From an uncultured bacterium (lineage in GTDB: Bacteria; Muiribacteriota; UBA6191): a stretch of DNA of 42,310 nucleotides. Where the stretch lies: the NCBI GenBank assembly GCA_964600955.1, contig CAZRLV010000001.1:2277-44586 (forward strand), written 5' to 3'. The notes below the pieces were generated by a model. It searched no databases and was not told the origin of the DNA. It saw only the letters and a program-made list of their open reading frames with translations. The translations under genes and the position numbers were made by a program. How positions within the stretch are numbered: the stretch's first letter is position 1; the number at the start of each line of letters is the position of its first letter. Shown piece after piece: positions 16,122 to 42,225 of this stretch.

Positions 16122-18800
16122 ATGGAAGGTTTTAGAATAAATAGTAATATTGCGGCCCTGAGTACTAACTCACATCTGAGAAAAGCTCAGGGTGGATTAG
16201 GGCAGTCGATCGAGAGACTCTCCTCGGGACTTAAGATCAATAGGGCTGCTGATGACGCAGCAGGACTCACAGTTTCAGAGAAATTGCGAGGACAGATTAT
16301 TGGTTTAAACCGTGGGATTCAAAATGCCCAGGACGGAATTTCCCTGATTCAGACGGCAGAAGGTGCCCTCAATGAGGATCACGCCGTGTTGAACCGCATG
16401 AGAGAACTCTCAGTTCAGGCTCAGTCTGATGCTTTGACTTCAGGCGATCGTCTGGAGTTGCAAAAAGAAGTCGATCAAATGGTCGGCGAGATTGATCGCA
16501 TCTCTGACACCACTGAATTTAACACCAAGAAAATGCTAGACGGGAGTATGTCCGGTCTGGTGAGTACAGATCATAATGACCTCACTGCCTATCAGAACGG
16601 TGGTGCTGTGGCGGAAGGCGATTTTACGGTCGCGATTTCAAAAACGGCAAGTGGTACAAGGCAGGTTCAAAATTCTGCAATCCAAAGAGATGCAAATAGC
16701 GGGAATGTAGCGGGCCTTTCCACTACGCTCAGAGATCTTGAGAGCATGACTGATAGTGATGGAAACGGGAGTCTTGCTAGCGCACAGACTCTGACCTTAA
16801 GAGCTAACGGTTTTACGGCTGAAGTCACCATGACTTCCGATCAAACTCTCCAGGAGTTTACCTCCAAGGTTGAGACTGCTATTACCAAAACTGAGGATGA
16901 TGGGGGTCTGGGTCTTGAAGGTTCAACTTTTGCTTTTAATGCGAGCTCTGGACAGTTCATCTACGAGGCTGGAAAAGATGGCAGTCGGGGGGATCTTTCT
17001 TTTGGAGGAGATGAAGATATCCTACAGGCGATAGGTATGCAGGTTACGGTAGAGTCAGAAGATTCTGCGTTTAGTGTGACCTCCACGCAGGTGGGTGTAG
17101 CCTCTCCCCAGACGGTTACTGAAACGACGAGCAGTGGTCGTGCTTCAGGTGTCATTGGTGGCTTGGATCTTGAGTTTGAACTGGCCTCCGAGGCTCGCCA
17201 TGATGGAAGTGTTGCGGCCACGGACTCCATTACCATCGCTGCTACTGATGTAGTGTTTACTTTTCATGATACGAATGGTGCTGACATTGGGCAGACGGAT
17301 GGAAACATCAGTGCCGGGGTGACGATTACTCTGACACAGAGCCGCACCTATACCACAGCATCAATTTCTACCATGATTAACAACGCGGTAGCAGCATCGA
17401 ATGATCCTACCAGCGCACTGACACCAACAAGTGCCTCCACAACATCCTTTAAAGATCCAGGTATTACCGCCAGTTTCGATGGCTATAACCTCAAACTGAC
17501 CTCCTCTGACACCGGAACGTCGGCAGAGATTTCCATCGCTGGGAATCAGGCGGCGCAAGATATCATGGGAATTGTGGATGGAAAGACGACAGGTAGCGCG
17601 GGAGTTACCGCCGCTCTGGTCGGTTCAGTGGATATCTCTGGTGGGGTCACGATCAACGGAACCGGAACCTTGCGGTTGCGAGTCGGTGACGGGGATTTCA
17701 ATACCAACACGGGTAATACGGCAGGATCTCGTTCTCTCGGGGTTGCAGCTGGAGGAGACATTTCCTTTAACCGAGGAGTGGCTATTTCTTCAACTTCTGT
17801 TGTAGATACCTTCAACTCCTATTTCACGACCAACAACATGGATGCAGTAGCCAGCATGGCTGCCGATGGAAAACTGGAGATCCGCTCCATCGAGACAGGT
17901 ACTGATGCCAAGCTTTCTATCACTGGAAATGCTCCAGCCACGGATTCCATGGCTAATCTCGGATTTACTTCGGGTCAGACCGACCTTGGAGAAGATGGAA
18001 ATGCTGCGGTATTTACTTGAAATACTGCTGACTCGCAAGAGACCCAGGGTTTTACTCTGTCGGGACATTTGGATTTCAATGTCACCGATAGAAACGGTGC
18101 CACGACTACGACGATTTCCTTTGACGCATCCGGTGTCAGTACGAACGAGTCGTTTACCATTTCAAAAGAGACAGTGACCTCGGTCATTAACTCGAGTAAC
18201 CTGAGCACTACCGATGTTGAATTTAGTATCGATGCCGGTAATCGACTAGACTTCTCTTCGAAGTCTGCCGGTGAAGGTTCCAGGGTTGTGCTTTCTACCA
18301 ATAACAATGGTACGATGCAAACCCGTGCCAGCACCAGTTTTGGTCTGGATATGGAAAGCTCGGCACAGGGTGCCGGCAAGACTGATTTCAACGTCCATGT
18401 TACTGACAAGACATTGAATTTTGAGGTAGGCGCGAACCAGAAGCAATTCCAGAGCTTTCAGGTTCGAAATGCCAGTGCAGACTCTCTGGGTCTGCGAGGC
18501 GTTGATGTCACTAATATCTCGGCTGCCACTAAGGCTCTTGGAAAAATCGATGACGCTATTCAGGCGGTATCGAGCGAGAGAGCCAAACTGGGAGCCATGC
18601 AGAACCGCTTGAATTCAACAGTGAATAGCACCACTGTAACCCATACAAATGCCTCGGCTTTTGAATCGTCCATTCGAGACGTGGATCTTGCCAAGGAAAC
18701 GGTGGAATTCACTCGAAATCAGATCCTGACACAGGCAGGTACGGCTCAGTTATCCCAGACCAAGGCCCTAAATCAAGGAGGTCTACAACTCTTAGGATAG
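16122..18800 (+). pseudogene. fliC: Giant flagellin paralog 1: one 893-codon frame interrupted by a single in-frame TGA (18018..18020)
   Basis: Track ORFs 16122..18020 and 18069..18800 are in the same frame. 18021..18068 has no further stop. The N-terminal D0/D1 region (MEGFRINSNIAALS...LSSGLKINRAADDAAGL...ISLIQTAEGAL) is in the first ORF. The C-terminal D1/D0 region (KLGAMQNRLNSTV...IRDVDLAKETVEFTRNQILTQAGTAQLSQ) is in the second. It is collinear with the intact 879-aa paralog. Confidence 0.85.
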
Positions 18801-20238: not shown

Positions 20239-20312
20239 TGGAACCAGCTATTTTTTAGAGTTTTAAAGGTATGCTATCTTAGGCGGGAAGCGAAGTCAAA
20301 CCGGATTAGTTG

Positions 20313-22659: not shown

Positions 22660-22673
22660 GATAGATGATTCGT

Positions 22674-23345
22674 TTACTCGAAATATTTAGCTGTTGTTTC
22701 TTTTCGTGGACAGGTTCTTTCGGAAATAAAGAGTTCTCTGGGACCTGCCGATTTCATGATTAATGAACCGGCCCCAATTAGGCATTCATCACCAATTTCA
22801 ATACTATCTCTCAAGGTCGCGTTGACTCCAATCATACATTTTTCACCGACCGTGCAATTTCCGGATATCACCACATGCGAAGTGATAAATGTATGATCTC
22901 CAATCTTGGAATGATGGCCGATGTGGTTACCGCTCCAGAGGACCACATTATTCCCGATTTGGGCGAAAGGTTGCAGGGTGTTGTTCTCAAAAATGAAGGT
23001 ATTATCTCCGATTTTGTTCGTAGACCACAGCCGTACCCCAGGGTAGATATAGGATACGAGTTCATAACCTTTGCTTTTGGCTTCTTCGTAAAACTTGGCT
23101 CGGACATGATTTAGACGTGCATAGCCGATGGCTACAAACATTTTCGTTGCGTGTGGCGGAAATCTGGATTCTACATTTTCAAAGGATACGACCTCAAGTC
23201 CTAGAAACTCGCGAGAATCCCTTTGTTCCAAATAGGCCTTGGATTCACAAAATCCAACGACTTCAAAATCACTGGCTTCGCTAAAATAAGCATATACAAC
23301 CTCGGCAAAGAGATTGGTGCCGACAAGAACAATTTTTTCAGTCAT
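22674..23345 (-). CDS. NeuD/PglD-family sugar N/O-acyltransferase (hexapeptide repeat)
   Basis: N-terminal Rossmann-like KIVLVGTNLFAEVVYAYF, followed by a left-handed beta-helix with hexapeptide repeats (IGNNVVLWSGNHIGHHSKIGDHTFITSHVVISGNCTVGEKCMIGVNATL). Confidence 0.75.
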   Translation of the reverse strand: MTEKIVLVGTNLFAEVVYAYFSEASDFEVVGFCESKAYLEQRDSREFLGLEVVSFENVESRFPPHATKMFVAIGYARLNHVRAKFYEEAKSKGYELVSYIYPGVRLWSTNKIGDNTFIFENNTLQPFAQIGNNVVLWSGNHIGHHSKIGDHTFITSHVVISGNCTVGEKCMIGVNATLRDSIEIGDECLIGAGSLIMKSAGPRELFISERTCPRKETTAKYFE

Positions 23346-23348
23346 GAT

Positions 23349-24404
23349 TTATCTCCCTGGCAACAAGCGATCAAACGGAACAGCAAAGAAGTTGGGGAAC
23401 TCTTGAAGGATTTCTGAGCGAGTGAACTCCAGGATTGAAGTCTCAAGGACTTGAGTGTAATAGATGTAGGGGTGATCCTGTGCTCCCCATCGCTTTTTAA
23501 AATCATAGACTCCGGTCTGGTCATCCCAGGTTCCACCCCAGTTCCAATATTTGAATCCTTTTGATATGGCATTCTTCATCGCTTCAATCAAAGCCAAACT
23601 TAAGGGTTGGCAATTTCGAAACTCGGGGTCCAGTGCGGGGGTAAAATATTCGACAGTCTGATTGAAATAAAAAAGCAGAACAGCGGCTACCATACGATTA
23701 TCGATCTCAGCCAGATAAAGAACATAGTCATCTTTGGCGTAGATTTCAGGGATGGTTCTAAAAAACTCCCAGGACTTTGGAATTCCTCCCAGGTCATTTA
23801 GATTGGCCCTATGCAATAGATAAAGTTTACGCAGGTCCTCAAGACTCTGAGATTTTCGGATGGTGACACCGCTCTTTTTTGCCTTGCGAATATTTCTGGA
23901 GCGGCATTTGCTAAAAGATGCGATCAATAGGCTGAGAGCTTCATCCGATGACTGGGGGAGGGGGGTAATCTGGCCTGTGCGGGCTGTTTGGAAGGTAATA
24001 GGGGTAAAGTCACCATAGTTTATGTTCATGGCACTAAATGGAGAGGAAACAAGGGTAGCGCTCAGGCATTTCTTTTCTCTGGCAAATGAAAAGAACCCGG
24101 CAATGAGTTTCTCACGTATTTCGGGGCTTCCATGGTGTTCGATACAGCCTCCGTGACTCCCGTAAAACGGGAGGGAATTCAGGACATTGCCATAGCGAGT
24201 ATTTTGTTTGAGAAATGTAGGCAGGACTCCCATGATTTTTTTATCTACGTAAACGCATAGGTAGTGGTCGGTTGCCTTGAGTACGCGCTTTAGATGCAGT
24301 CGATAAACATTGGAGGCATAAAGTTGGGTCCATGGAGAGCGCAGAAGGAAGTCGTTGTATTGGTCGAGGTCCTCCGGTTCCAGTTTTTTCAGTTCAAGAG
24401 TCAT
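23349..24404 (-). CDS. FemAB / Acetyltransf_6 (GNAT-fold) family protein
   Basis: Track ORF 23349..24539. The internal ATG at 24404 (MTLELKKLEPEDL...) limits the overlap with the upstream gene to 11 nt. Family-like region: YVLYLAEIDNRMVAAVLLFYFNQTVEYFTPALDPEFRNCQPLSLALIEAMKNAISKGFKYWNWGGT...YDFKKRWGA. Confidence 0.6.
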   Translation of the reverse strand: MTLELKKLEPEDLDQYNDFLLRSPWTQLYASNVYRLHLKRVLKATDHYLCVYVDKKIMGVLPTFLKQNTRYGNVLNSLPFYGSHGGCIEHHGSPEIREKLIAGFFSFAREKKCLSATLVSSPFSAMNINYGDFTPITFQTARTGQITPLPQSSDEALSLLIASFSKCRSRNIRKAKKSGVTIRKSQSLEDLRKLYLLHRANLNDLGGIPKSWEFFRTIPEIYAKDDYVLYLAEIDNRMVAAVLLFYFNQTVEYFTPALDPEFRNCQPLSLALIEAMKNAISKGFKYWNWGGTWDDQTGVYDFKKRWGAQDHPYIYYTQVLETSILEFTRSEILQEFPNFFAVPFDRLLPGR

Positions 24405-26418
24405 GTTTAGGTTTAGACATAAAAAAACTATGGTACCACTCCTCAAAGGAAAGCAGTGACCAGATGAGCAGGCGATGATTAATGCCTTGCGAGTGCTCTT
24501 TAATGGTTTTTTCGATAAAGTCCTTGTTGAGGAACTCAAGACAGACCGCTGATTTTGCTAATAATCGATCTTTAACGTATTGGAAATTTTCGCCGCGGTA
24601 CCAACTCTCGTCCGGCGCTGAAAACCCTTGTTTACTTCTTCGGGTTATTCTCTCGGGCAATAATCCCTGCATGGCATGCCGTAAAACATTTTTTCCGTCA
24701 TCATGACTTTGGTAATAGGCACTTTGCTTTCTCAAAATATTTTCATCCATGCGGGTTTGCTGTTCCAGGTTTCTTATTTTATGTCGAATAGGAATTTTCA
24801 TGGCAAAGTCCACAAGATCATTATCTAGGAAGGGGAATCTCTCTTCAATCGATGAGGCCATCGAGAGCTTGTCGCCGACTATGAACAGCCCATGTAAAAA
24901 CGTCTTGATTTCAAAATAAAGAGAATTTGCAAGATGATCCTCAGGGGAGTCGTAGTTAAGGTTTTCATTAAAGCGGAAGACTTTTTTAAAGATCTCATAG
25001 GGTCGGTCAATCGAGATATTTTTGAGGGTTTCAGGTTTAAACAGTCTGAGCCTGTCCTGACCTTTCACCAATCTCTGCCAAAACCCATAATAATGTGAAT
25101 AAAACTCTTCGCGGTCAGTGGGATTCAATTCACGGTAATAGCGCCAAGGATAGCCTGCATAGAGTTCATCACCTCCCACACCTGTAAGTACGATCGTTAC
25201 AAATTTAGAAGCCAGTTTGCTGATATAGTAATTTGGATAACTCATGCCTACGCGCAGGTCCTCCATATGCCAGATCACTTTAGGGAGAGCCCATGATATG
25301 TCTCCGGCATTGATAACCTGTTCAAAATGCTGGGTTTTAAATTCATTGGCTACAATCTCGGCTGCGAGTCGTTCATCAAAGCTAGCCTCAACACCCGTTA
25401 CCTGAGACAGCTCAAAACCTGCTGTAAAGGTGCTCATACGCTCTAATTGCTGGCTTGCAACGGCAACAACTGCACCGCTATCGATTCCTCCACTCAAATA
25501 GGAACCGATGGGAACATCGGCCACGCATTGGCGTTTCACTGCCTGATGAAAGAGGCGCAGAGTTTCTTCACTGGCCTCGCTAAAGGAAATATTTTCATCA
25601 CTCTGTGTAAAATCATAATCCCAGAAACAAGTTTTTTGAAACCTGTTCTGGAAGTCAATCTGAGCTATATTGGCAGGAGGTAGGAGAAAAACCCCCTCGA
25701 ACAGAGTCTCGAACTGAAATAGGTTTTGAAACGTGAAATACTCATTCAGGGCTTCATAGTTTAGCTTTCGTGCAAGATCCGGGTAGCATAATAGAGATTT
25801 GATCTCGCTGGCAAAAAGAAACAAGTCTCCGCATTGAGCATAGTACAAAGGTTTGATTCCATATCGATCTCTTGCCAGATACAGGGTTTGTTTGGGACTA
25901 TCGAAAAGGGCAAAGGCAAACATGCCATTGAAACGTTTCACACAGTCTATGCCCCATTCCATATAAGCCAATAAAACCACTTCGGTATCAGAGCGGGATC
26001 TGAATTCATATCCGAAACCTTCAAGCTCCTGTCTTAATTTAATGTGGTTGTAGATTTCTCCGTTGAAAACCAGCCAAAAGTTTCCCGATCGGTCCTGCAT
26101 GGGTTGATGGGCCGCCGCACTGAGATCAAGAATGGATAATCGGCGATGTCCAAGAAATAGATTCCAATGGTCTCCTTGCAGAGCGGTTCGTCCCTCCGGC
26201 GAGTCTATGACAGGAAGTCTGGGTGAAATTGAGGAAAATTCAGAGTCAGTGAATTCCAAATCGTAAGAAGACATTTTACCTGCCAGAGGACCTGTACGAG
26301 CGACTAAATATCCAGCGTCATCTGGGCCTCGATGGGAGATGCTGTCGCACATGGTCTTGAGAAAATTTGACTTCAGGATCTGACCATTGGCGGCCAAAAC
26401 TCCAACTATTCCGCACAC
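24394..26418 (-). CDS. asnB: Asparagine synthase (glutamine-hydrolysing)-like amidotransferase
   Basis: 674 aa. N-terminal nucleophile MCGIVG, Ntn glutaminase domain, then the PP-loop SGGIDS (YLSGGIDSGAVV) of the synthetase domain. Confidence 0.85.
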   Translation of the reverse strand: MCGIVGVLAANGQILKSNFLKTMCDSISHRGPDDAGYLVARTGPLAGKMSSYDLEFTDSEFSSISPRLPVIDSPEGRTALQGDHWNLFLGHRRLSILDLSAAAHQPMQDRSGNFWLVFNGEIYNHIKLRQELEGFGYEFRSRSDTEVVLLAYMEWGIDCVKRFNGMFAFALFDSPKQTLYLARDRYGIKPLYYAQCGDLFLFASEIKSLLCYPDLARKLNYEALNEYFTFQNLFQFETLFEGVFLLPPANIAQIDFQNRFQKTCFWDYDFTQSDENISFSEASEETLRLFHQAVKRQCVADVPIGSYLSGGIDSGAVVAVASQQLERMSTFTAGFELSQVTGVEASFDERLAAEIVANEFKTQHFEQVINAGDISWALPKVIWHMEDLRVGMSYPNYYISKLASKFVTIVLTGVGGDELYAGYPWRYYRELNPTDREEFYSHYYGFWQRLVKGQDRLRLFKPETLKNISIDRPYEIFKKVFRFNENLNYDSPEDHLANSLYFEIKTFLHGLFIVGDKLSMASSIEERFPFLDNDLVDFAMKIPIRHKIRNLEQQTRMDENILRKQSAYYQSHDDGKNVLRHAMQGLLPERITRRSKQGFSAPDESWYRGENFQYVKDRLLAKSAVCLEFLNKDFIEKTIKEHSQGINHRLLIWSLLSFEEWYHSFFMSKPKHDS

Positions 26419-27596
26419 TGGAAGAGTTCCTCCATGACATAATTGAACTCGGAATCCGTCATTTGAGGGTAGACAGGTAGCGCAATGCTAAGTTGGTCGG
26501 CAGCCAAGGACTGAAGATAGTCCTCAGGGTTTATACCATATTTTTGCCGATAGTATTTCAAGGTATGAACCGCATGGGTTCCCTGTCGCGTGGCTATTCC
26601 CTTGTGCGCAAGTCTGAACATGAACTGATTGCGCAGTCGATTCAATTTTTCAATTTTGGACAGATTCAATTCTGCGAAATCTTCACCGCCCGTATAGAGG
26701 CAGACATAAGACTGATAGCTATGTACATATTCCTGTGGAGTGACCGGTGTCTTGAGGTGTGGGTGAGAACCTAAGGCAGCGTCATAGTTTCGGGCAATTT
26801 TGCGGCGTCCGTGAAGTATCTTCTGGGCTTTCTCAAGCTGAGTCACGCCCAGAGATGCCTGGATATCCGTCATGCGGTAATTAAATCCCCGAAGCTCAAA
26901 TTCAGGCAAGAGGCTTCCTTGCCTGGACTGGTGTCGATCCAGGTCTGAGACCGCAGCTCCATGACTTCGCAACTGATTGACCTTCTCAATTAGACTGGAG
27001 TCTTCTGTAATGAGCATTCCCCCTTCACCAGTGGTTATGGCTTTGCGGGGATGAAAAGAAAAGCAGCCAAGATCACCAAAGGTTCCAGAATGTCTGTCTC
27101 CAATCCAGCTGTCAAATCCGCAAGCCGAATCTTCAAGAATTCTGAATTCATATTTTCTACGTAGATCCAGAATCGCCGGAAGGTTGGAGCAAAGACCAAA
27201 AAGGTTGACTGGCATGACGGCCTTGATTCTGTTCTGGGTGTCCTTTTCCAAGATTTCTTCGAGTTTCGTCGTATCCAGGTTGAAATCCTGTAGGCGGATA
27301 TCACAAAAGATGACTTTTGCTCCCGTATACTCAACTGCGTTTTGAGAGGCTACATAGGTGAAGGATGGCACAACCACCTGGTCTCCCTCACCAATCCCCA
27401 GAGCAGTTAAACCCAGGTGAAGGGCGCTGGTACAGCTGGAGCAAGCGCTCGAAAATGAGGCTCCTGTAAATTGGCTAAAACGCGATTCAAACTCTTTGAC
27501 CCAAGGTCCCTGAACCAACCAGCCAGTGTCCAGGGGGCGTAAAACAGCCTCGCGGTCTTTGGAATCAAGAACTGTCTTGGTAATGGGTATCTTCAT
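26406..27596 (-). CDS. DegT/DnrJ/EryC1/StrS-family PLP sugar aminotransferase
   Basis: 396 aa. Has SCTSALHLGL and the PLP-lysine region CFSFHPRKAITTGEGGML. 4-nt overlap with the upstream gene. Confidence 0.85.
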   Translation of the reverse strand: MKIPITKTVLDSKDREAVLRPLDTGWLVQGPWVKEFESRFSQFTGASFSSACSSCTSALHLGLTALGIGEGDQVVVPSFTYVASQNAVEYTGAKVIFCDIRLQDFNLDTTKLEEILEKDTQNRIKAVMPVNLFGLCSNLPAILDLRRKYEFRILEDSACGFDSWIGDRHSGTFGDLGCFSFHPRKAITTGEGGMLITEDSSLIEKVNQLRSHGAAVSDLDRHQSRQGSLLPEFELRGFNYRMTDIQASLGVTQLEKAQKILHGRRKIARNYDAALGSHPHLKTPVTPQEYVHSYQSYVCLYTGGEDFAELNLSKIEKLNRLRNQFMFRLAHKGIATRQGTHAVHTLKYYRQKYGINPEDYLQSLAADQLSIALPVYPQMTDSEFNYVMEELFQCAE

Positions 27597-28561
27597 TGTT
27601 TGTGATTTCTGCGCCAGTCTATGAGTTTTCTAAGTCCATTTTGAAGTTCAAGATCATAATTAAAATTGATTTCCTTCGAGGCTTTCTTTGGGTTTCCAAT
27701 TCGATTAGTGACAAAGACTTCGGGAGCGGGCTCATACTGGATCGTAGCTGTGCTATCTGTCAGCTCAAGAATGAGTTTAACCAGCTCATTGATTGAGGTC
27801 TGTACTCCTGAACCAATATTATAAAACTCATTGCTGGCTTCGGATTTAAGGGCGCAGACATTGGCTCGGGCAGCGTCAGAGACATAAATGAAATCAAAGG
27901 CTTGTGAACCGTCTCCGTGAACAATAGGGGGTAATCCCTGCTCCAGACGATCCAGGATTTTCATGATGACCGCAATATACGCTCCTTTATAGTCCTGTCG
28001 GGCCCCATAGACATTCATATAGCGCAATCCGCAGTAGTTTAGACCATAGCGGTGAAAAAAGGATTTACATAGATGTTCGCCGGCTATTTTTGTGGCTCCA
28101 TAGAATGTCTTATTATTATAGATATGATCCTCTGACATTGGAATTTCCACGGCATCACCATAGACCGAAGCCGAAGAGGAATAAATAAGTTTTTTAACCC
28201 CATGTTTAACACAGGCCTCAAGCACATTGAATGTTCCCTCAATATTGACATGAAAAGCGCTGCGGGGATAGTCGTGGCAGTGCAGCAGCCATAGAGCTGC
28301 CAGGTGCACCACAAAATCACATCCTTTGACGGCTTCATCCAGAATGTCGGTGTGAAGGATATCCCCTCCTAGTTCGAAAACTCGAACACGGTCATCCTTT
28401 AGGGCATGTGAAAGGTTCTCTCTTGTACCTCGGGAGAAATTGTCATAGACAATAATTTGGTCAAAATCTTCTTGGATTAACTCATCTACAACATGAGACC
28501 CAATGAATCCGCCCCCCCCAATAACCAAGACTTTGCAACCTCGAAAATCCCAGGGTTTCAT
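27593..28561 (-). CDS. SDR-family NAD-dependent nucleotide-sugar epimerase/dehydratase
   Basis: VLVIGGGGFIGSHVV (GxxGxxG), the YGATK catalytic YxxxK, 322 aa. The glycine motif is encoded by a G8 run (plus-strand C8, 28512..28519). Confidence 0.85.
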   Translation of the reverse strand: MKPWDFRGCKVLVIGGGGFIGSHVVDELIQEDFDQIIVYDNFSRGTRENLSHALKDDRVRVFELGGDILHTDILDEAVKGCDFVVHLAALWLLHCHDYPRSAFHVNIEGTFNVLEACVKHGVKKLIYSSSASVYGDAVEIPMSEDHIYNNKTFYGATKIAGEHLCKSFFHRYGLNYCGLRYMNVYGARQDYKGAYIAVIMKILDRLEQGLPPIVHGDGSQAFDFIYVSDAARANVCALKSEASNEFYNIGSGVQTSINELVKLILELTDSTATIQYEPAPEVFVTNRIGNPKKASKEINFNYDLELQNGLRKLIDWRRNHKQ

Positions 28562-29697
28562 GTGAGGCTCCTTTCATTAAAAAATTCCTGGATAGCCTGA
28601 ATAATGCTGCTCTGATGACTCTCGGACAAAAACGCACTCATAGGCAAGGATAGGACTTCATAACACAGCTTTTTTGCACGCGGAAAGAATGCGGATCTTA
28701 ATGGACTTTTAAACACGGGTTGTTCGGGCAGAGGTTTGGGGTAGTGTACGGCTGTTGGGATTCCCAGACTAGACAAATGCTCCCTAAGTTGATCCCGCAA
28801 TGGGGTTCGACACGTAAACTGAGCCCATACTGAAGATTGGTCGGGCTCAAGTTCTGGCAAACCCAGGGCCTCCAGCGACTCCAAACCATCAAAATAGCGT
28901 AAAGCGACTCTTTGCCTTTGGGTAACTTCTTGAGGGAAATAACGCAATTTGACGAGAAGAATGGCGGCTTGTACTGAATCCAGGCGGCTATTCATGCCCG
29001 CCATAACATGGGTGTAGGTTCTGGATTCTCCTTGAGCTTTTGGGGGTAGTTCACCATGGGATTTTACCAATCTCAACTTCGCTGCAGTCTCATCCCTGTT
29101 GCAAAATACGGCGCCACCGTCACCAAAACAACCCAGAGGCTTTGAAGGGAAAAAACTGGTTGCGGCCAACTGGGTCTGACCCCCGCTGAAGCCATCACGA
29201 TTTCGTGCCCCCAGGCTCTGGGCTGCGTCTTCGATCACCACCAGATCATGAGTCTTAGCCACTCTTGATATATTTCGTAGATTACAGGTTTGGCCAAATA
29301 GGGAAACAGCCAGTATGGCTCGAGTCCGGCTGGTGATCACTCCTTCTAGAAGGTTTGGATCCAGTCCGAAACTCTTTTCTTCGACATCAACAAATACAGG
29401 GATAGCCCCAGAGAGTAGAACAACTTCAGCCGTCGCTATAAAACTGAAGGCGGGAACAATGACTTCATCACCAAGTTCCAAATCCAGAGCTTTGAGGCAA
29501 AGGAGCAGGGCATCGGTACCGCTTGCGCAGGTTACGCAGTGTTCGGTCCCGACAAATTCGCCCAATTGGGTTTCCAATTCACCGACCCAGGGGCCGTTAA
29601 TGAACCTTCCAGAATCCAGAACTTCCTCTATGGCTTTGTTAAAGTCTGCACGGTAGGCTTGAATTTGCGCATCAAGATCGGAGAAGGGAATTTTCAT
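28558..29697 (-). CDS. wbpE: WbpE/WlbC-like DegT aminotransferase (3-oxo-sugar transaminase type)
   Basis: 379 aa. The PLP-lysine region SFFPSKPLGCFGDGGAVF closely recalls WbpE-type enzymes. It sits directly downstream of the WbpB-like and WbpD-like genes. Confidence 0.7.
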   Translation of the reverse strand: MKIPFSDLDAQIQAYRADFNKAIEEVLDSGRFINGPWVGELETQLGEFVGTEHCVTCASGTDALLLCLKALDLELGDEVIVPAFSFIATAEVVLLSGAIPVFVDVEEKSFGLDPNLLEGVITSRTRAILAVSLFGQTCNLRNISRVAKTHDLVVIEDAAQSLGARNRDGFSGGQTQLAATSFFPSKPLGCFGDGGAVFCNRDETAAKLRLVKSHGELPPKAQGESRTYTHVMAGMNSRLDSVQAAILLVKLRYFPQEVTQRQRVALRYFDGLESLEALGLPELEPDQSSVWAQFTCRTPLRDQLREHLSSLGIPTAVHYPKPLPEQPVFKSPLRSAFFPRAKKLCYEVLSLPMSAFLSESHQSSIIQAIQEFFNERSLT

Positions 29698-30278
29698 TCT
29701 AAGGGTTTTCCAGTCTTGTCCAGGAAATAGACCTGATTCTTCTCAAGAACATATTTACTGGAGTCAGAGGAATCCATGGCTTTGCCGGATCTATCGAAAT
29801 GCAGTTTGTTTCCAGCCCGTGAAATCCAACCTTGATGTTTAGCGGGATTGCCATAAACCAATGCGAAATCAGGTACATCACGTGTCACTACAGAACCTGC
29901 TCCGATCAACGCGAAACGGCCTATGGTAACCCCACAAATCAACGTGGCGTTGGCACCAATGGTAGCTCCTTGCTTGACCAGAGTAGGCAGGAACTCATTT
30001 TTGCGCTCCAAAAAAGCCCTTGGATTTATGACGTTAGTGAAAACCATGCTGGGTCCCAGGAATACATGATCTTCCAGAGTAACGCCCTGATAGACCGAAA
30101 CATTATTTTGGATTTTGACTCCGTTTCCAATGACTACATGCGGCCCTATCATACAGTTTTGACCGATGATACAATCTGTGCCGATTTGAACGTCTTTTAG
30201 CAAGTGAGTGAAATGCCAAATATTGGTTCTTTCCCCAATTTGAACTCCCTTGTCGATGCATGCCGTGTTGTGGATCAT
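29694..30278 (-). CDS. wbpD: WbpD/WlbB-like hexapeptide N-acetyltransferase
   Basis: 194 aa. NIWHFTHL...IQNNVSVYQGVTLEDHVFLGPSMVFTNVINPRA matches my memory of Pseudomonas WbpD / Bordetella WlbB nearly motif for motif. Confidence 0.75.
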   Translation of the reverse strand: MIHNTACIDKGVQIGERTNIWHFTHLLKDVQIGTDCIIGQNCMIGPHVVIGNGVKIQNNVSVYQGVTLEDHVFLGPSMVFTNVINPRAFLERKNEFLPTLVKQGATIGANATLICGVTIGRFALIGAGSVVTRDVPDFALVYGNPAKHQGWISRAGNKLHFDRSGKAMDSSDSSKYVLEKNQVYFLDKTGKPLE

Positions 30279-33511: not shown

Positions 33512-34699
33512 TCAGAATCTTGCGGACTTCTGATTTTTTTTCTGGGCTGGTGGGTTTTTGGCGCATTCAAGTAATTTTTGAGGGTTTCCAAGCACACCAT
33601 AAATCTTTAGGCATTGATGGAAGACAAAGGGATCAGGGCCAAAGACGGATTCGAATTCCTGATAGCACGCTAAGGCTTCTTCAAACCGTTGCTTACATGA
33701 ATAGAGAAAACCCAGGTTATAAAGAATTTCCGCACGAAAAAACTGAATTTCAGAAACCTTATTCAGGACCTTATGAATTTTCTCATACCAGAGAAGAGCT
33801 TCGGATTCATCCTTGCCTACGAAGGCAGCACGTGCTTTACGCAGCCAGAGCATGGGCGAATCAGGATTTAGTGTAGAGACAATTTTTTCCCAGACTTCTA
33901 CATCATCTTCTGGTTTTCTCGGGACCTTGAGAGGAAATTCCATCAACCACCCATAAACGGATTCTGCAAGAAACACTCGCAAATTTCCACTTGAGCTATT
34001 GAAGGCTTCTACCAGGAGATCTAGGATCTTGATCTCACCATTCCAGTGGCTCTGGGCATAGTAATAGACGAAGGATGGTTCCCTTCCCATCTGCTCAAAA
34101 TGCTTATCTAGCAGTCCCTTGTTTCTCTCAATTTTTTCCTCGTAGCGTGACCCTGCATAACCCAGATGATAGACCTTAGTATCGATCTGGGTGAATCCAA
34201 AGTTTTTTGCCTCCAAAGAAGGGACTACAGTTTCATGAATGGGGTTTTGAAACTGGATTCCAAGCCCGTTTCTAAAAAGGCGTACAAAAGTATTGCTGTC
34301 ATTAATGCTATGGATTTGAAGATCATGGCTAGTCCAATTCATAGTTTTCAAGCTGACACAGGACAATGAATAGGCACTTGCGTCTGACTTTGATATAAGG
34401 GCACGCAGTTGAAGTAAATCTTCGCCCCGCAGTCTTTCGTCAATATCCAAACTTAGAATCCATTCACCCCTGGCCTGCGATAGGGCAAAATTACGGGCAG
34501 CTGAAAAATCATCTATCCAGGTAAAGTCAAAATAAGGTAGGGAACGTTGCCTGAGAATATCAAGACTGGTGTCCGTAGATCCTGTATCCACCAGAACCAA
34601 TTCATCACAATAGGGGAGAATCATATCCAAAAACTCAGGAAGAAAGAGTTCTTCGTCGCAAAAAATAGCGCAGACGCTTAGTAATTTCTGGGTATCCAT
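33512..34699 (-). CDS. GT2-family glycosyltransferase fused to a C-terminal TPR-like domain (paralog 1)
   Basis: N-terminal GT-A motifs SVCAIFCDEE, LVLVDTGSTDTS, FSAARNF and the DxD motif LSLDIDERL. The helical C-terminal half has TPR-like units (FFRAEILYNLGFLYSCKQRFEEALACYQEF). It aligns along its whole length with 38241..39536. Confidence 0.75.
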   Translation of the reverse strand: MDTQKLLSVCAIFCDEELFLPEFLDMILPYCDELVLVDTGSTDTSLDILRQRSLPYFDFTWIDDFSAARNFALSQARGEWILSLDIDERLRGEDLLQLRALISKSDASAYSLSCVSLKTMNWTSHDLQIHSINDSNTFVRLFRNGLGIQFQNPIHETVVPSLEAKNFGFTQIDTKVYHLGYAGSRYEEKIERNKGLLDKHFEQMGREPSFVYYYAQSHWNGEIKILDLLVEAFNSSSGNLRVFLAESVYGWLMEFPLKVPRKPEDDVEVWEKIVSTLNPDSPMLWLRKARAAFVGKDESEALLWYEKIHKVLNKVSEIQFFRAEILYNLGFLYSCKQRFEEALACYQEFESVFGPDPFVFHQCLKIYGVLGNPQKLLECAKNPPAQKKNQKSARF

Positions 34700-35130: not shown

Positions 35131-37770
35131 TTAAAATAACAATGTCAGGGCGGTTTGACCCAAGGCGTTGGCTTGAATCAACTGTGCGGTTCCAGCTTGA
35201 ACCAGGATCTGAGAGCGTGTGAAATCCACGGTTTCTTTGGCGATATCCACATCTCGAATCTGGGATTCGGCGGCGGCCAGATTTGTGGTTGTACTGGTTA
35301 AATTATCCACGGTTGTATTGAGGCGATTTTGAAATGAACCTAGTTTTGATTGTTCAGTGGTGATTTGTCCCACGGCAGAATCAATGGAGGCCAAAGCCCG
35401 CGTAGCTGCTTTGATATTGGTTACATCCAGAGCTTCAACCCCCAGAGATTCCGCGCTGGTATTGGCCAAAGGAAAGCGGAGATGCTGTCCCTGATTTGCA
35501 CCGACTTGAAAGCGCATACTGCGATCCGAAACATGGAGATTGAATTCTTCTCGTCCACTGCCCTGGGCCTGACTATTGAAATTGATTCCAAAGGCGTTCA
35601 GTCCCGTGTTTTGGGACGCTAGATTGGAAAACAGGGTAATTCTGGAGTTTGTACCCGGTGAGCGTGAGAAAAAGTCCAGACGATTTCCTCCATCAAACCC
35701 AAAGTCCACATCCGTGGAACCAATAGAGCTAGAGTTGAGAATCGAGGAAACCTGAGTGGAGCCAATGGCAAAGGACTCTCCCGTAGAGCTGACATTGGAG
35801 GTTCCAAAAGTAATGGTTCCGGTCTGCACCCCTGTTTCATCTGAGGCCCTAAAGCTCATGAAGCTATTGAGTACAAAGGTGGATTCTACCTCAAAACTGG
35901 AGTTAGTATTGCCTGAGAAACTGGCAACACTTCCCCCGGTCCCTGTGTCCGTTTGTCCATCTACCAGACCCAATTCCGCCAGGGAGCCCCCACCAAAGGA
36001 TGTGATCGAAAGCCTTGAGTCATCCCCCGTTTCGGTGGAAATGATTTCGAGAAACCCTGCCGCGGTGACCGAAGCGCTGGCTTTAATATTATTGGCTGTA
36101 AAATAATTATTAAACTCAGAGGTTATGGATGCAGAAGAGATCAGGGTTGCCCGGTTGAAAGTAATATCATTTACGGTGGAAGACGGGCCCCCAGTATTGA
36201 AGTCACCATCACCCAGCTGAATTCTTAATACTCCTGTACCCGCAATGCTGACTCCAGCTGATACATCGGCAGTTCCTGTAAAAAGAGCTGAACTTCCCCC
36301 ACTACCCGTAACTTTTCCAGGGGTTAGGCCCAGAGTGGTTTGCGCGGCCCCATTTGCGGTCAGGGAGATTTCTCCAGATGTACCCGTCTTATTTGAGCTT
36401 AGGACTAGATTGAATCCGTTGAAACTGGCTGTAACCCCAGGAGTTTGATAACTACTTGAAGTGGTGGGTGCGGTCAGAGGATCTGTGGGATCATTGGCGG
36501 CTGAAATCGAATTATTGATCATCGACTCTATCGAAGTCAGGGTGTAGGTCCTTGAGGCTGTGAGGGTGACCGTGACACCGGCCGTGATACTGCCCAGGGT
36601 TTGTCCATTGTCCTGAGCATTGGTATCGTGAAAGGTAAAGACGGCGTCGCTGTTTCCAATTTTCAGTCCCTGCACTCCGGCAACCGTTCCATCGAGTCGT
36701 GCCTCCTTGGCTAAGTCAAATCCGATGACCAGCCCGTCCAAAACCCCCGAAGCTCTCTGAGAAGTGGTGTTGGCACTAAAGGTTTCAGGGCTGCTGACTC
36801 CGGTTTCAGTGGCTGAGACCCGAAATCCGGGGTCCCTGGATTCGACCGTGGTTTGCATGGCCAGCGCATTGATAAAATCCTCTTCAGCTGCAAGGCTGAG
36901 CTCTCCGCTGCGGCCGTCTTTTCCTCCTTGGAAGATGAACTGTCCCGTAGAGGAGTTATAGGCAAAGGTAGCCCCGGACATATTCAGTCCGCCTTGACTA
37001 TCATCCGCCTGTAGAGCCGCCTCAATACTGCGGGAAAAATCTTCCAGCGTGGTATCCCCCGATATGGTGAGATCGCTTCGGCGTCGATTACCACGTAGGG
37101 TCAACGTGATGGGATCCTCCAAAATAGAGTTACTTTCAGCATCAAACATGCTGTCAAGATCTCTCAACTCAGTGGTTAAACTGGCGATTTGCCCTGTAGT
37201 TTGGTCCGTTTGAATGCCAGATTTCTGTTCCTGTTTTTCGCCAAAACTATTGCGTTGCACCGAAATTCTATATTCTCCTGGACGGATGGTTCCGCCAGTT
37301 TGAAAGGCTCGCCCATCCTCTCCATCTGTGGAAACGAGAGCCGATGCGCTTCCATCGAGAAGACTGCGGGTATTAAATTCAGTGGATGCGGAGAGTTGAT
37401 CAATCTCAGAAATGGCAAGATCCACCTCTTTTTGGATTTCGATACGATCATCGACAGTAAGTGCATCTGACTGCGCCTGGATCGAAAGGTCTCTAAGCCG
37501 ATTTAGAATTTCTGTATGTTCTCCCAGGGCTCCGTCAGCCGTTTGTATAAGGGAGATCCCGTCCTGAGCATTGGATACAGCACGATTGGTCCCGCGGATT
37601 TGTGAACGGAGTTTTTCCGCCACGGTCAATCCTGACGGATCATCCGCGCCCCGATTAATACGCAAGCCTGAAGAAAGACGTTCTATTGAACGTGCTAAGC
37701 CCTGTTGATTCTTAAACAGGTTCACCCGGACCCTCAGGGCCGGAATATTATTATTGACACGAAAACCCAT
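35131..37770 (-). CDS. fliC: Giant flagellin paralog 2 (879 aa), the only intact copy
   Basis: N-terminal D0/D1 (MGFRVNNNIPAL...LSSGLRINRGADDPSGL...ISLIQTADGAL) and C-terminal D1/D0 (KLGSFQNRLNTTV...IRDVDIAKETVDFTRSQILVQAGTAQLIQ) flank a roughly 600-aa S/T/G-rich insert. ATG preceded by GGAGGG. Confidence 0.95.
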   Translation of the reverse strand: MGFRVNNNIPALRVRVNLFKNQQGLARSIERLSSGLRINRGADDPSGLTVAEKLRSQIRGTNRAVSNAQDGISLIQTADGALGEHTEILNRLRDLSIQAQSDALTVDDRIEIQKEVDLAISEIDQLSASTEFNTRSLLDGSASALVSTDGEDGRAFQTGGTIRPGEYRISVQRNSFGEKQEQKSGIQTDQTTGQIASLTTELRDLDSMFDAESNSILEDPITLTLRGNRRRSDLTISGDTTLEDFSRSIEAALQADDSQGGLNMSGATFAYNSSTGQFIFQGGKDGRSGELSLAAEEDFINALAMQTTVESRDPGFRVSATETGVSSPETFSANTTSQRASGVLDGLVIGFDLAKEARLDGTVAGVQGLKIGNSDAVFTFHDTNAQDNGQTLGSITAGVTVTLTASRTYTLTSIESMINNSISAANDPTDPLTAPTTSSSYQTPGVTASFNGFNLVLSSNKTGTSGEISLTANGAAQTTLGLTPGKVTGSGGSSALFTGTADVSAGVSIAGTGVLRIQLGDGDFNTGGPSSTVNDITFNRATLISSASITSEFNNYFTANNIKASASVTAAGFLEIISTETGDDSRLSITSFGGGSLAELGLVDGQTDTGTGGSVASFSGNTNSSFEVESTFVLNSFMSFRASDETGVQTGTITFGTSNVSSTGESFAIGSTQVSSILNSSSIGSTDVDFGFDGGNRLDFFSRSPGTNSRITLFSNLASQNTGLNAFGINFNSQAQGSGREEFNLHVSDRSMRFQVGANQGQHLRFPLANTSAESLGVEALDVTNIKAATRALASIDSAVGQITTEQSKLGSFQNRLNTTVDNLTSTTTNLAAAESQIRDVDIAKETVDFTRSQILVQAGTAQLIQANALGQTALTLLF

Positions 37771-37938
37771 ATTCCCTCCATGGCAAGTATCGGCAGGGAA
37801 GAGAGGGGGGGGTGAGTACGGTGATAACGGGTAGGGTTGAATTAGAGGCCAAAGGCTCTAAAAACCTTCCAATTTCCAAAGAAAATATCTATGGTCCAGT
37901 TTTTTTATAAAAACGGGAGTTTTTTTCCTTCTCTCAAG

Positions 37939-37966
37939 GTATCGGCAAAATTGGGACAAAACTTTA
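37939..37966 (-). promoter_or_regulatory. Sigma-28 (FliA) promoter of flagellin paralog 2
   Basis: The minus strand reads TAAAGTTT (37966..37959), 12 nt, then GCCGATAC (37946..37939). A T8 tract lies just upstream. The leader is about 160 nt. Confidence 0.75.
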
Positions 37967-38240: not shown

Positions 38241-39536
38241 CTAGAGGGCCGCTTTTTTCATGAACTTTTCTCGAACTTCCTTTTTTCCCCTAAAATCAAG
38301 GGCGTCCAGGAAGCTGAGCAGTTCTTTTCGCTTGGGCTCGTCAAGACTCGATAATTTTCGGGGAAAATTTTTGATCTCCGAGATAAAACCAGGGTAGTCT
38401 TTAGCCGCGAAAAGCAGTTTCAGAATCTGATGATAGCTGCCTTCATTACGGCCTTCGCGTGCCTCAAGAATTCGAACGCATTCCATGGCTTCCTTGAGAC
38501 GACCTTCCATGGCGTAGAGAACTCCAAGGCGATCCAAAACCTCTTTCCAGACCTCGGGGCGTAGAGCCTCGAAACTCAGTCGTTTCTTTACGGTTTCATA
38601 AGCTGAGCGCGCCTCTCCAATCTTTGCATTTGTAAAATGTCTCCTGGCCCGCCGGAGAAAAACGAAGGCGGCTTGAGGATTGATTTTCAAGAGTGCCTTT
38701 TCCCAATCTATTGCGGACCTGTCCGAATCCATAGGGGGGGGCCCAAACTCATCGATCCACGCCAGAGCTCTCTCGGCGATGGCGTAGGCAAGTGCAGTTT
38801 TAGCACGCGTAAATGCTTGACTGAGAAGCATATAGACTTGCGGTTCACTGGACCAGATCAAGGTCGTGTAATTGAAGATAAAATCTGGATTTTGAGGATC
38901 TTTATTAAAATTAACGCGAATAATTTCTTCATTGCGTTGGTCCTTCAAAGGACAGAGTTTGTCTACATAGCCCAGATGGTAAACCGGCAGATCCAGGTTT
39001 TCAATGCACCCTGCTTTTTCCTGGATCACGGAGTCAATGGTTTCGTGAACCGGGTTTTGATAGTGAAATCCAAGGTGGTTGCGAAAAACCATCAATCGGG
39101 CCTGGACATCCTTTACGGGTACATCTGACCTCTGCCAGTCAAAACTATTGACACTGATATACGAGAGATAAAAAGCATCGGCATGGGTCTCTGGCAGAAG
39201 ATCAAGGAGCTTTTTTAGCGTCGCTCTCGGAATGCGATCATCTACGTCCAAAACCAGAATCCAGTCCCCGGTTGCCTTTTGAAGACTGAAGTTTCGCGCG
39301 GCGGAGAAGTCCTGAACCCACTCAAAATACAAGGGTGATAATCCCCGGTTTTCAAGAATCTTCAGACTTCGGTCCGTACTGCCGGTATCCACCAAAATGA
39401 GTTCGAAAGAACCATGGCTTACTTCGTCTAGACAAGACAAACAGTCTAAAAAATCAGGAAGGAAGCCTTCTTCATTTCTGAAAATGGTACAGACTGAGAC
39501 TTTGGGTGTGGTCACGGTGTTGATTATAACACTCAC
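38241..39536 (-). CDS. GT2-family glycosyltransferase fused to a C-terminal TPR-like domain (paralog 2)
   Basis: SVCTIFRNEE, LILVDTGSTDRS, FSAARNF, DxD motif LVLDVDDRI, and TPR-like C-terminus (VLDRLGVLYAMEGRLKEAMECVRILE). GTG start. Contains a C8 run (plus-strand G8, 38734..38741) encoding GPPP. Confidence 0.75.
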   Translation of the reverse strand: MSVIINTVTTPKVSVCTIFRNEEGFLPDFLDCLSCLDEVSHGSFELILVDTGSTDRSLKILENRGLSPLYFEWVQDFSAARNFSLQKATGDWILVLDVDDRIPRATLKKLLDLLPETHADAFYLSYISVNSFDWQRSDVPVKDVQARLMVFRNHLGFHYQNPVHETIDSVIQEKAGCIENLDLPVYHLGYVDKLCPLKDQRNEEIIRVNFNKDPQNPDFIFNYTTLIWSSEPQVYMLLSQAFTRAKTALAYAIAERALAWIDEFGPPPMDSDRSAIDWEKALLKINPQAAFVFLRRARRHFTNAKIGEARSAYETVKKRLSFEALRPEVWKEVLDRLGVLYAMEGRLKEAMECVRILEAREGRNEGSYHQILKLLFAAKDYPGFISEIKNFPRKLSSLDEPKRKELLSFLDALDFRGKKEVREKFMKKAAL

Positions 39537-39624: not shown

Positions 39625-42225
39625 TTATGAAAGAAGCGAAAGCGCTCCCTGATTAAAGCCCTTAGTTTGCGCCAACTGAGCCGTAGCCGCCTGCGTGAGG
39701 ATTTGATCTCGCGTAAAATCAACGGTTTCTCTGGCAATATCCACATCGCGAATCTGGCTCTCAAATGAGCTTTGATGAATATGCGATGAGGTTAGAGTGT
39801 TGACGGCCGAGCGTTTTGGATCGACCCAAGTTTGGATCTTTCAGACGAGACTCTGGCAATGGCGTCATCCACCTTTCCTAGAGCCTTGGTGGCACTATGG
39901 ATATTTGTGATGTCTAAGCCGCGTAGTCCGAGAGCTTCAGAGCTGGCATTGGCCACCTGAAAACCAAGGGTTTGTCCCTGATTAGCCCCGACTTCAAATT
40001 GAAGCGTTCTATCGGTGACGTGCAGATCGAAATTGATTATCCCTGTACCCTGAGTCTCTTTATTGAAGTCAATTCCAAAGGAGTTTTGCCCAACAATCTG
40101 TGAGGAATTATTGGATGTGAGGACAATTTTGGCATTGTTTCCAGGACTGCGCGAGATAAAATCAAGGTTTCCAGCCACATCGAAGGAGTAGCTGACCCCG
40201 GTACTGCCAAGACTGCTATTATCCAGGATAGATGAGAGTTGGGACTGACTGATGGTGAAAGACTCCGTACTGCTGGTATTGGCAGTCCCAATGAAAATAT
40301 TTCCCGAAGAGCCGCCATTTTGGTCGATAACGGAAAACTGCATATAGCCGCCGAGTGTATATCCGGTGGTCAGATTGGTCGAGTTGGTGGATCCCGTATA
40401 GATAGCAGCCGTTCCAGCCGCTCCCATGGCGCTTGATCCCGAGACCATACCTATGGCCGCCATGGAGGCACTCGAAGTGATTGATATCCGTGCGTCACTG
40501 CCGCTTTCGGTGGATCTCAGCTCCAAAATTCCTCCGCTATTAATGGCCGTGGCTTTAACCCCCTCGGCCGCGAAATAATTATTGAACTCGTTTATGATGG
40601 AGGCGGCGGTAATGACGACTCCCTGATTGAAAGTGATATCGCTGGATGTGGCTGAAGCCCCCTGGTTAAAGTCTCCATCGCCGACTTGGATACGAATGAC
40701 TCCAGTGCCGCCAAAAGCAACTCCACCGGCGATAATTGCCCCTGAGAGCAGGGCATCAGAACCTCCAGCTCCGGTAATGGCGGTGCTCGCGATTCCAAGC
40801 ACTGCAGAAGCCTGGGCATTGGCTGCGATGGAAATAGTGCCACTGGTTCCGGTATCAGACGAGGTTATTGAGGGGGTCGAAATTGACCGTAAAGCCGGGG
40901 ACACGATAGGAGCTGCTGGTGGGGCCCGTTAGAGCATTGGTGGGGTCATTAGCCGCAGCAACGGCATTGGTAATCATGGTGGTTACCGAAGTTGTACTAT
41001 AGGTGCGACTGGCTGTCAGAGTAATCGTGACCCCGGCGCTGATACTGCCAGTCGTCTGACCGTTATCTCCGGCATTCGTGTCATGAATGGTAAAGACTAC
41101 ATCCGTGTCATTGGTTTGAATGGAATCCGTCCCTGTCAATTCACCGTCCACACGGGCCTCAGTGGCTAATTCAAAGGAGATGTCCAACCCTCCGAGAATT
41201 CCAAAGGCTCGATCGGATGTAGTTTCGGTGGAGTAAAACTCCGGTGTGGCAACTCCTTTCTGAGTTGCAGTTACCTTATAAGCGGCGGCTTCGGCCTCCA
41301 CTGAAATTTTAAAGGCCAGGGCGTTGACGATGTTTTCGTCGGCAGCAAACGACAACTCACCGGAGTCTCCAGCTTTCCCGGCATTATAGACAAACTGGGC
41401 TGTGGAGTTATCAAACTTAAATACAGAGCTAGCGATTCCAAGTCCTCCGTCTTCTTCATCACGAAGAATAGCGTTTTGCACTTTGTTGGCAAATTCCTCC
41501 ACACTCATCGTGCTGTTCATTTGAATTTCCACCTGGTTTCCATTTCCGCGCAGAGTCAGGGTTTCAGGATTTCCTAAAAAATTGTTCCCCTGAGAGTCAC
41601 TCATGCTGATCAGGTCGCCCAGGCGCGTATTTAGACCAGCCTCACGCTCGGTTTTAGAGCTTCTTTGGATGGCTCCGGTGAGTTCCTGGCGATTGCCGAC
41701 ATTGAGCAGGGAAAGTTCCACTGCATAGTCCCCGGCCGCGATGGATTCACCAGTCTGAAAAGCTCCAAGCTCTTTTTTGTCGGTAGAGGCTAAACCTGCG
41801 GCACTTCCGTCAATTAGCTTTTTGGTATTGAACTCTGTGGTCTGGGAGATTCGATCCACCTCGGTGATTAATTCATCCACTTCTTTTTGAAGCTCCATAC
41901 GGTCGTTGGTAGTCAGAGCATCATTCTGACTCTGAATGGATAGTTCACGGATGCGGTTTAAGATGGCATGATCTTCGTTAAGGGCCCCCTCGGCAGTTTG
42001 AATCAACGAAATGCCGTCCTGAGCATTACCAATGGAGCGGCTTAAACCGCGAATCTGGGAGCGGAATTTCTCTGAGATAGTGAGACCGGCAGCATCGTCG
42101 GCCCCGCGATTGATACGAATTCCAGAAGAAAGTCGTTCAATGGATTGGCTGAGTCCCGACTGATGTCGTCTCAAGTAACTCTGCGTGTTTAACGCAGGAA
42201 TATTTTCGTTAATTCGAAAACCCAT
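39625..42225 (-). pseudogene. fliC: Giant flagellin paralog 3 disrupted by two compensating frameshifts
   Basis: Flagellin homology runs through three frames: 42225..~40877 (track ORF 40855..42225), the +1 frame (track ORF 39792..40904), then back to the first frame for the last ~62 codons. That last stretch, in my translation, reads ...RSAVNTLTSSHIHQSSFESQIRDVDIARETVDFTRDQILTQAATAQLAQTKGFNQGALSLLS*, with stop at 39627..39625. Total length is 2601 nt = 867 x 3. Confidence 0.85.

Follow-up and report, generated by a model that had tools for sequence, protein, structure and literature searches.

An intact flagellin gene and the layout of its product

The window analysed here, a 42,310-nucleotide (nt) stretch of contig CAZRLV010000001.1 (positions 2,277 to 44,586, GenBank assembly GCA_964600955.1) from an uncultured bacterium of the Muiribacteriota, carries three large flagellin paralogues, of which the one at 35131..37770 on the minus strand is an intact flagellin gene encoding 879 amino acids (aa). 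An earlier reading of the DNA made without database searches (the sequence-only reading) had singled out the segment 35536..37338 (-), which corresponds to aa 145-745 of this open reading frame (ORF), as an insert built from four tandem modules resembling the flagellin IN motif. Both terminal helical domains of a bacterial flagellin of the FliC/FlaA type score above the Pfam thresholds, Flagellin_N at aa 5-141 (E 3.6e-37, 128 bits, cut-off 26.6) and Flagellin_C at aa 794-878 (E 7.7e-22, 77.9 bits, cut-off 23), and Pfam returned nothing credible between them. The closest solved structures by sequence are flagellins throughout, the top match in the Protein Data Bank being the Geovibrio thiophilus flagellin, in its 793-aa entry sequence 9au6_A (phmmer, E 5.3e-58; aligned query 2-228).

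A sigma-28-type late flagellar promoter lies about 170 nt upstream of the ATG on the coding strand. The sigma-28 consensus is TAAA-N15-GCCGATAA, and the FliA-type element found here, read from the sequence as a consensus match only, is TAAA-N16-GCCGATA (37940..37966, -). The start codon is preceded by a GGAGGG Shine-Dalgarno motif, graded good. The 879-aa product is presumably assembled into the filament. The coding-strand leader also holds a run of eight C residues (37805-37812), situated between the promoter and the ribosome-binding site.

The terminal helices, D0/D1 at aa 1-144 (37339..37770; Pfam Flagellin_N, model helices 8-32, 50-99 and 106-138) and D1/D0 at aa 786-879 (35131..35415 with the stop codon; Pfam Flagellin_C, model helix 786-869), enclose an outer region of about 640 residues, aa 145-785, with four modules inside; these and all following segments of the gene lie on the minus strand. 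The outer region opens with a first beta segment at aa 145-216 (37123..37338; model strands 146-184), which, to judge from its phmmer alignment with 9au6_A, is homologous to the opening part of the G. thiophilus flagellin outer region. The putative IN-type modules that follow were delimited by the envelopes of a hidden Markov model (HMM) built from the pooled modules, renumbered from the ATG by subtracting 29 preceding open-frame residues, and by the IN-profile matches given below. Module 1 spans aa 217-308 (36847..37122; envelope 218-308) and is succeeded by an all-beta region at aa 309-394 (36589..36846), in which DSSP places eight strands between aa 305 and 381. Module 2, at aa 395-486 (36313..36588; envelope 396-486), carries in the module alignment an insertion of about 20 aa between its helix and its GVTASF strand, and is followed by beta segment 2 at aa 487-531 (36178..36312; model strands 485-521), part of a repeat of about 120 aa. 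Module 3 at aa 532-608 (35947..36177; envelope 533-607), the copy nearest to canonical IN domains, is followed by beta segment 3 at aa 609-648 (35827..35946; model strands 607-643), which aligns to beta segment 2, and module 4 at aa 649-735 (35566..35826; envelope 649-733), the most diverged copy, by beta segment 4 with the return to D1 at aa 736-785 (35416..35565; model strands 734-766). The sequence-only reading had placed the four modules at aa 219-305, 397-482, 534-602 and 651-730, positions nearly identical to the HMM envelopes. Serine and threonine make up 26% of the outer region vs. 18% of the core, so that the description of the modules as Ser/Thr-rich reflects a real enrichment but a modest one; glycine accounts for a further 12%, and the region is net acidic (D+E 10.6% vs. 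K+R 5.5%).

The outer region contains four homologous modules

For the central region 56 homologues were retrieved, 686-938 aa in length and only three of them outside the range 862-938 aa; they are metagenomic throughout, and none of the 56 carries a precomputed Pfam domain in its middle. Self-comparison of the 879-aa protein with blastp (word size 2, E<=100) gave no internal match, and the similarity among the modules is therefore invisible at the level of a single sequence. Comparisons were made by hhalign between sub-profiles of a family alignment of 54 of these homologues. Taken with the originally proposed bounds, modules 1 and 2 matched at 84%, modules 3 and 4 at 88% and modules 2 and 3 at 54%. 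Sliding windows of 80 aa paired 454-538 with 573-655 (97%, E 1.5e-10), 563-612 with 687-739 (89%) and 278-306 with 455-483 (88%), and in the same kind of comparison the beta segments at 488-538 and 609-655 matched each other with a probability of 89%.

Comparison of whole units, each consisting of a module and the segment after it, gave a score of 55.8 for units 2 and 3 (probability 96%, E 2.8e-9), 35.4 for units 1 and 2 (69%) and 33.8 for units 3 and 4 (73%), vs. scores of no more than 21.9 and probabilities of no more than 6.9% in 72 reversed or column-shuffled controls. The non-neighbouring pairs (1 and 3, 1 and 4, 2 and 4) fell within the null range of these controls, and the four units are thus tied together as a chain and through the common IN profile described below.

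Units 2-4 recur with a period of about 120 aa, made up of one IN-type module and a beta segment of three to four strands; the repeat length of 70-90 aa given by the sequence-only reading is therefore too short, because the beta segment after each module repeats too. Unit 1 is longer, at about 178 aa, because the eight-strand beta region comes after module 1, and this region has no counterpart in the other units, the unit comparison giving no profile match beyond aa 306. Cumulatively, these comparisons confirm the presence of four homologous modules in the outer region.

Profile comparisons link the modules to Flagellin_IN domains

To represent the extended IN domain we used a proxy profile made in this analysis, distinct from the curated Pfam HMM. 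It was compiled from 30 Pfam-significant PF07196 domains of same-phylum genomes, and four of these domains belong to true flagellins. Its consensus reads sf.ING..i.v...tL.dvv..IN...GVtAs.d..gkl.LtS..tG...i.l....snfl..lGl. Searched against the 879-position family profile, it yielded exactly four matches, all at the modules: module 3 at 519-612 (90%, E 1.7e-6), module 1 at 224-306 (51%, E 1.5e-4), module 2 at 397-496 (30%, E 5e-4) and module 4 at 673-743 (2.8%, E 0.016). The fifth match had an E of 0.38, and the best match on the reversed family profile an E of 0.39. When all four modules were pooled in one alignment of 216 sequences, the resulting profile matched the IN profile at 94.7% (hhalign, E 5.7e-8, 65 columns), and a second profile-comparison tool, run with the IN alignment against the family alignment, gave 83% (E 8.5e-6) at 554-616, in the region of module 3.

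The link was also found in the reverse direction. The module HMM matches the genome's own FliD, which carries Pfam FliD_N, FliD_C and Flagellin_IN (three PF07196 matches), at E 6e-4 and at the Pfam IN positions. Moreover, in five of six single-IN flagellins of other phyla, taken from metagenome-assembled genomes (MAGs) of Armatimonadota, Zipacnadia, WS1 and Termititenax, the matches of the module HMM and the IN HMM coincide. Within the family itself, the IN HMM directly matches the position of module 3 in three members, and in a paralogue on another contig (C67) PF07196 scores 16.9 bits, below threshold, where module 1 lies. The modules share with IN domains the order of their elements, a GVTAS-like strand and a terminal LG[LIF], and the sequence pattern originally described for them is visible both in the family consensus of each module and in the consensus of the IN proxy.

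Predicted fold of the modules

A full-length AlphaFold model computed from the family alignment had a mean pLDDT of 81, with values of 85-93 in most of the outer region. In this model, a check that the sequence-only reading had proposed, the same order of secondary structure, namely strand(s), helix, three strands and short helix, appears in all four modules, and module 1 is modelled as beta-beta-alpha-beta-beta-beta-alpha. The best fold match of the full model in Foldseek was 9au6 (E 2.6e-20), with the FliD structure 6iwy at 7e-7. Because the full-length search is dominated by the D0/D1 helices, aa 395-655 (modules 2 and 3) were modelled alone from 16 sequences, giving a pLDDT of 76.5. The first 19 Foldseek matches of this two-module model are all flagellar proteins, non-flagellar ones appearing from E 0.13 on. 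Among the 19 are FliD D2-D3 domains or FliD complexes (9m6h, 5h5v, 5h5w, 9m67, 9m68, 5xlj, 5xlk, 6iwy and 9gsx_Y), and the remaining matches are outer domains of Vibrio cholerae, P. aeruginosa and H. pylori flagellins. The matches to FliD D2-D3 stand at the top, with E of 9e-4 to 1.5e-2 and probabilities up to 0.99, but with TM-scores of 0.25-0.36 and an rmsd of 11-14 Å over both modules.

At the level of sequence, the IN profile reaches the same FliD D2-D3 chains (5h5w at 59-143 with E 2.8e-7, and 5fhy, 5xlj and 5h5t) as well as the Vibrio flagellins that were retrieved by fold. Three independent lines thus converge: from the modules to IN domains by profile, from IN domains to FliD D2-D3 by sequence, and from the modules to FliD D2-D3 by fold. 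Taken together, the modelling points to a FliD-D2/D3-like predicted fold for the modules.

Comparison with known IN domains and large flagellins

Flagellin_IN domains are known from FliD caps (E. coli 5h5v/5h5w, Salmonella 5h5t, P. aeruginosa 5fhy) and also from flagellins, such as Sphingomonas p5 and the Vibrio Fla proteins; flagellins bear one to five IN motifs in tandem (PMC9751261). In common with PF07196 domains, which often occur in tandem, the four modules lie one after another in the variable part of an axial protein of the flagellum and show the same order of elements: one or more strands, a helix ending in a hydrophobic residue and Asn, a GVTAS-type strand, a hairpin and a short LG[LIF] helix. 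Unlike them, they fall below the Pfam model, have Ile-Asn in one of four copies, include the insertion of about 20 aa in module 2, and are each followed by a repeated beta segment that brings the unit to about 120 aa.

Among solved structures, the flagellin of G. thiophilus (9au6) is the closest in sequence and fold to the 879-aa flagellin, being likewise large and multi-domain with a beta-rich, acidic outer region. It is 792 aa long and has domains D2-D5, and a relation of D4 to FliD D2 and an origin of D5 as a duplicate of D4 are reported (PMC11532411). Only two of its domains are FliD-like, however, and one of these lies inside the other, whereas four modules stand in tandem here. The structure 9au6 was not among the top 50 Foldseek matches of the two-module model, and the module HMM found one weak match in related Deferribacteres flagellins.

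Giant flagellins have been defined as longer than 1000 aa, and in Oceanospirillales such flagellins owe their length to duplicated copies of a "DE" (domain-extension) unit, and experiments showed their filaments to be at least 30 nm wide (PMC6248924). The 879-aa flagellin resembles these proteins (Bermanella marisrubri, Oleibacter marinus) in having gained size through internal tandem duplication of an outer unit. They exceed 1000 aa, however, and are the single flagellin of organisms in another phylum, in contrast to the 879-aa protein, which is one of about ten flagellins in its genome. By the definition of PMC6248924, the name giant, which the sequence-only reading had used, does not apply to it: the protein is too short, its family ranges from 862 to 938 aa, and it lacks the DE repeat. 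Although the IN motif is never mentioned in the text of PMC6248924, the DE unit, taken from the alignment in supplementary file S4 of that paper, resolved into two IN domains when aligned to the IN profile, with probabilities of 97% and 61%. The suggested comparison with these marine gammaproteobacterial flagellins yielded no significant similarity, the DE profile giving E 0.024 against the modules and 0.25 against the full family, and direct kinship with the Oceanospirillales family was rejected on these grounds.

Paralogues and relatives

The genome is a MAG of 3.9 Mb in 606 contigs, 88% complete, with about ten flagellin genes. All three paralogues of the window share the four modules, one of them being cut by a TGA codon and another spread over two reading frames. 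The former (16122..18800, +; module HMM) has its TGA at 18018-18020, at a conserved Gly codon of the family, and the same frame goes on beyond it, so that three modules lie in the first open frame and the fourth module with the C-terminal helices after the stop; the TGA could be a sign of pseudogene formation, of strain variation or of faulty assembly in the 606-contig MAG. The latter (39792..42225, -; Pfam and module HMM) switches frame near 40853-40867, as located by tblastn.

Outside the window, four large flagellin genes stand in tandem on contig C67, and more flagellins are found on contigs C22, C16 and C70. The module HMM detects four modules in every full-length large flagellin paralogue of the genome and two in a 601-aa flagellin on C70. 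Among relatives, the four-module build is kept down to about 42% identity, in MAGs labelled Cloacimonadota, UBP17 or "uncultured bacterium". More distant relatives at 33-37% identity, one of them from a Riflebacteria MAG, have two to three detectable modules.

Glycosylation context and filament width

The intact gene is flanked on both sides by genes for proteins with a family 2 glycosyltransferase domain (GT2) and tetratricopeptide repeats (TPR). The downstream one (33512..34699, -; Pfam Glycos_transf_2 9.6e-13 and TPR) is a candidate flagellin glycosyltransferase, and the upstream one (38241..39536, -; Pfam Glycos_transf_2 1.4e-20) has a weak TPR match. Between the flagellin genes lies a block that is recognised by its gene content as devoted to sugar modification (19090-30278, -) and comprises two DegT aminotransferases, an SDR epimerase/dehydratase, hexapeptide and FemAB/GNAT acyltransferases, a TylF-like methyltransferase and an asparagine-synthase-like amidotransferase. 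By analogy, this block may be a flagellin glycosylation island. The flanking GT2-TPR genes and the putative island make it plausible that the modules are glycan carriers, as the sequence-only reading had predicted.

The same reading had also predicted an unusually thick filament, an expectation that is weakly founded. The filament of G. thiophilus is about 24 nm (240 Å) wide (PMC11532411), which is the width for the 495-aa FliC of Salmonella, and large size of a flagellin is thus no guarantee of unusual thickness.

Origin of the outer region and alternative explanations

Considering all of the above, it is probable in our view that the 879-aa protein is a functional filament flagellin whose outer region has grown by serial duplication of IN-type units. 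The surface region, aa 145-785, would have been extended in steps of about 120 aa, each unit contributing an alpha/beta module of about 80-90 aa (strand-strand-helix-strand-strand-strand-short helix) and a short beta segment. The D0/D1 helices would form the core of the filament, and the modules with their beta linkers an acidic outer layer rich in Ser, Thr and Gly. This layer may be O-glycosylated by the flanking GT2-TPR enzymes with sugars supplied from the adjacent island, and the filament might be about 24-30 nm wide.

Several observations speak against the assignment of the modules to IN domains. The sequence-only reading had looked to the Pfam Flagellin_IN model for confirmation, yet PF07196 is absent from the 879-aa protein at E<=0.1, absent from 35131..37770 when the whole genome is searched in six frames (E<=10), and not among the 25 families listed for the 54 relatives at E<=1; with the curated HMM the protein stays below the gathering threshold of 22.7 bits. 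The stand-alone IN match is convincing only for module 3, and modules 1, 2 and 4 need transitive links. The Ile-Asn pair itself is retained only in module 2 (M-I-N-N), its place being taken by I-E in module 1, F-N in module 3 and L-N in module 4 (L-D in the family consensus). In addition, the IN proxy profile was drawn from the same phylum, the Foldseek matches that cover both modules have modest E (9e-4 to 4e-2) with TM-scores of 0.25-0.36 and an rmsd of 11-14 Å, and the DE repeats, although built of IN domains, do not match the modules. The low TM-scores arise because the arrangement of the two domains differs.

It could be argued on this basis that the internal repeats are true, and that they resemble IN domains through convergence on a small beta-alpha-beta fold, belonging instead to a family of their own or to another beta-rich one such as the DUF992-like sandwiches described for D4/D5 of G. 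thiophilus. The missing Pfam match, the weak stand-alone scores of modules 1, 2 and 4, the low TM-scores to FliD and the mismatch with the DE repeats would all suit such an origin. Convergence would not lead one to expect, however, that out of 879 positions the IN profile selects the four modules alone, that the pooled module profile matches it as strongly as it does, that the HMM matches are reciprocal, in FliD as in unrelated flagellins, at the IN positions given by Pfam, or that secondary-structure order, GVTAS-like strand and terminal LG[LIF] are all held in common, and we regard it as improbable. Still harder to credit is the notion that there are no true repeats and that the periodicity is a compositional artefact of a beta-rich region with 26% Ser and Thr and 12% Gly. 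The empty self-BLAST and the non-neighbouring unit pairs in the null range are in line with it, but the controls, which keep the composition, remain at or below 21.9 and 6.9%, vs. 33.8-55.8 and 69-96% for real neighbours, and so rule out composition as the source of the periodicity; the external IN profile independently finds the same four positions, and the secondary-structure pattern appears four times in the model. Altogether, homology of the modules to IN domains at the profile or superfamily level is supported by these sequence comparisons, as is the view that they are highly diverged members of the Flagellin_IN/FliD-head superfamily that the Pfam model misses. The description of the modules as IN-motif-like thus stands as a statement of profile-level homology, but not of formal membership in PF07196.

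Another question is whether this particular gene matters to the flagellum. The repeats may be real and IN-like and the 879-aa paralogue nevertheless minor or silent, in which case the predictions on thickness and glycans would not be applicable to the flagellum. Bacteria with several flagellins often rely on one major subunit, this genome has about ten flagellin genes, and two of the three in the window are disrupted. On the other hand, the 879-aa copy is intact, is equipped with a sigma-28-type promoter and a good Shine-Dalgarno motif, and is placed between glycosyltransferase genes; further, all intact paralogues share the four-module build, so that the filament surface would be similar whichever of them is used. 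We consider a minor or silent role a possibility of some substance, albeit the less probable one.

A more speculative reading can be envisaged, one that we think rather unlikely: the four tandem FliD-head-like modules of each subunit would interlock into an ordered, glycosylated second shell, an outer layer specific to the phylum, and the roughly ten paralogues, some of them switched off by nonsense or frameshift mutations, would vary that shell. Should it be true, an uncultured lineage would possess a system for varying its flagellar surface.

Tandem IN motifs in flagellins, giant flagellins built from repeats and duplicated FliD-like outer domains are all already published, and in the light of these precedents the 879-aa flagellin is another, independently diverged case of the same principle of growth; nothing known is overturned by it. 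What it brings to light is a family of flagellins of about 880-940 aa, from uncultured bacteria in MAGs labelled Cloacimonadota, UBP17 or Riflebacteria, that appear to be built from four IN/FliD-head-type domains missed by Pfam models and that a broader IN-domain model would annotate. The family adds to an emerging picture in which flagellins become large by taking up and duplicating domains that flagellar genes already possess, and since the DE unit is also a pair of IN domains, the literature understates how general this theme is. With an intact large flagellin, two GT2-TPR genes and a putative sugar island side by side, the locus is a reasonable target for work on glycosylation and filament structure.

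Elsewhere in the genome, an open frame of up to 2068 aa on contig C43 (about 5.5-12.6 kb) has a Flagellin_N-like match of 70 bits together with Flagellin_IN matches, and could encode a hook-associated or junction protein of very large size.

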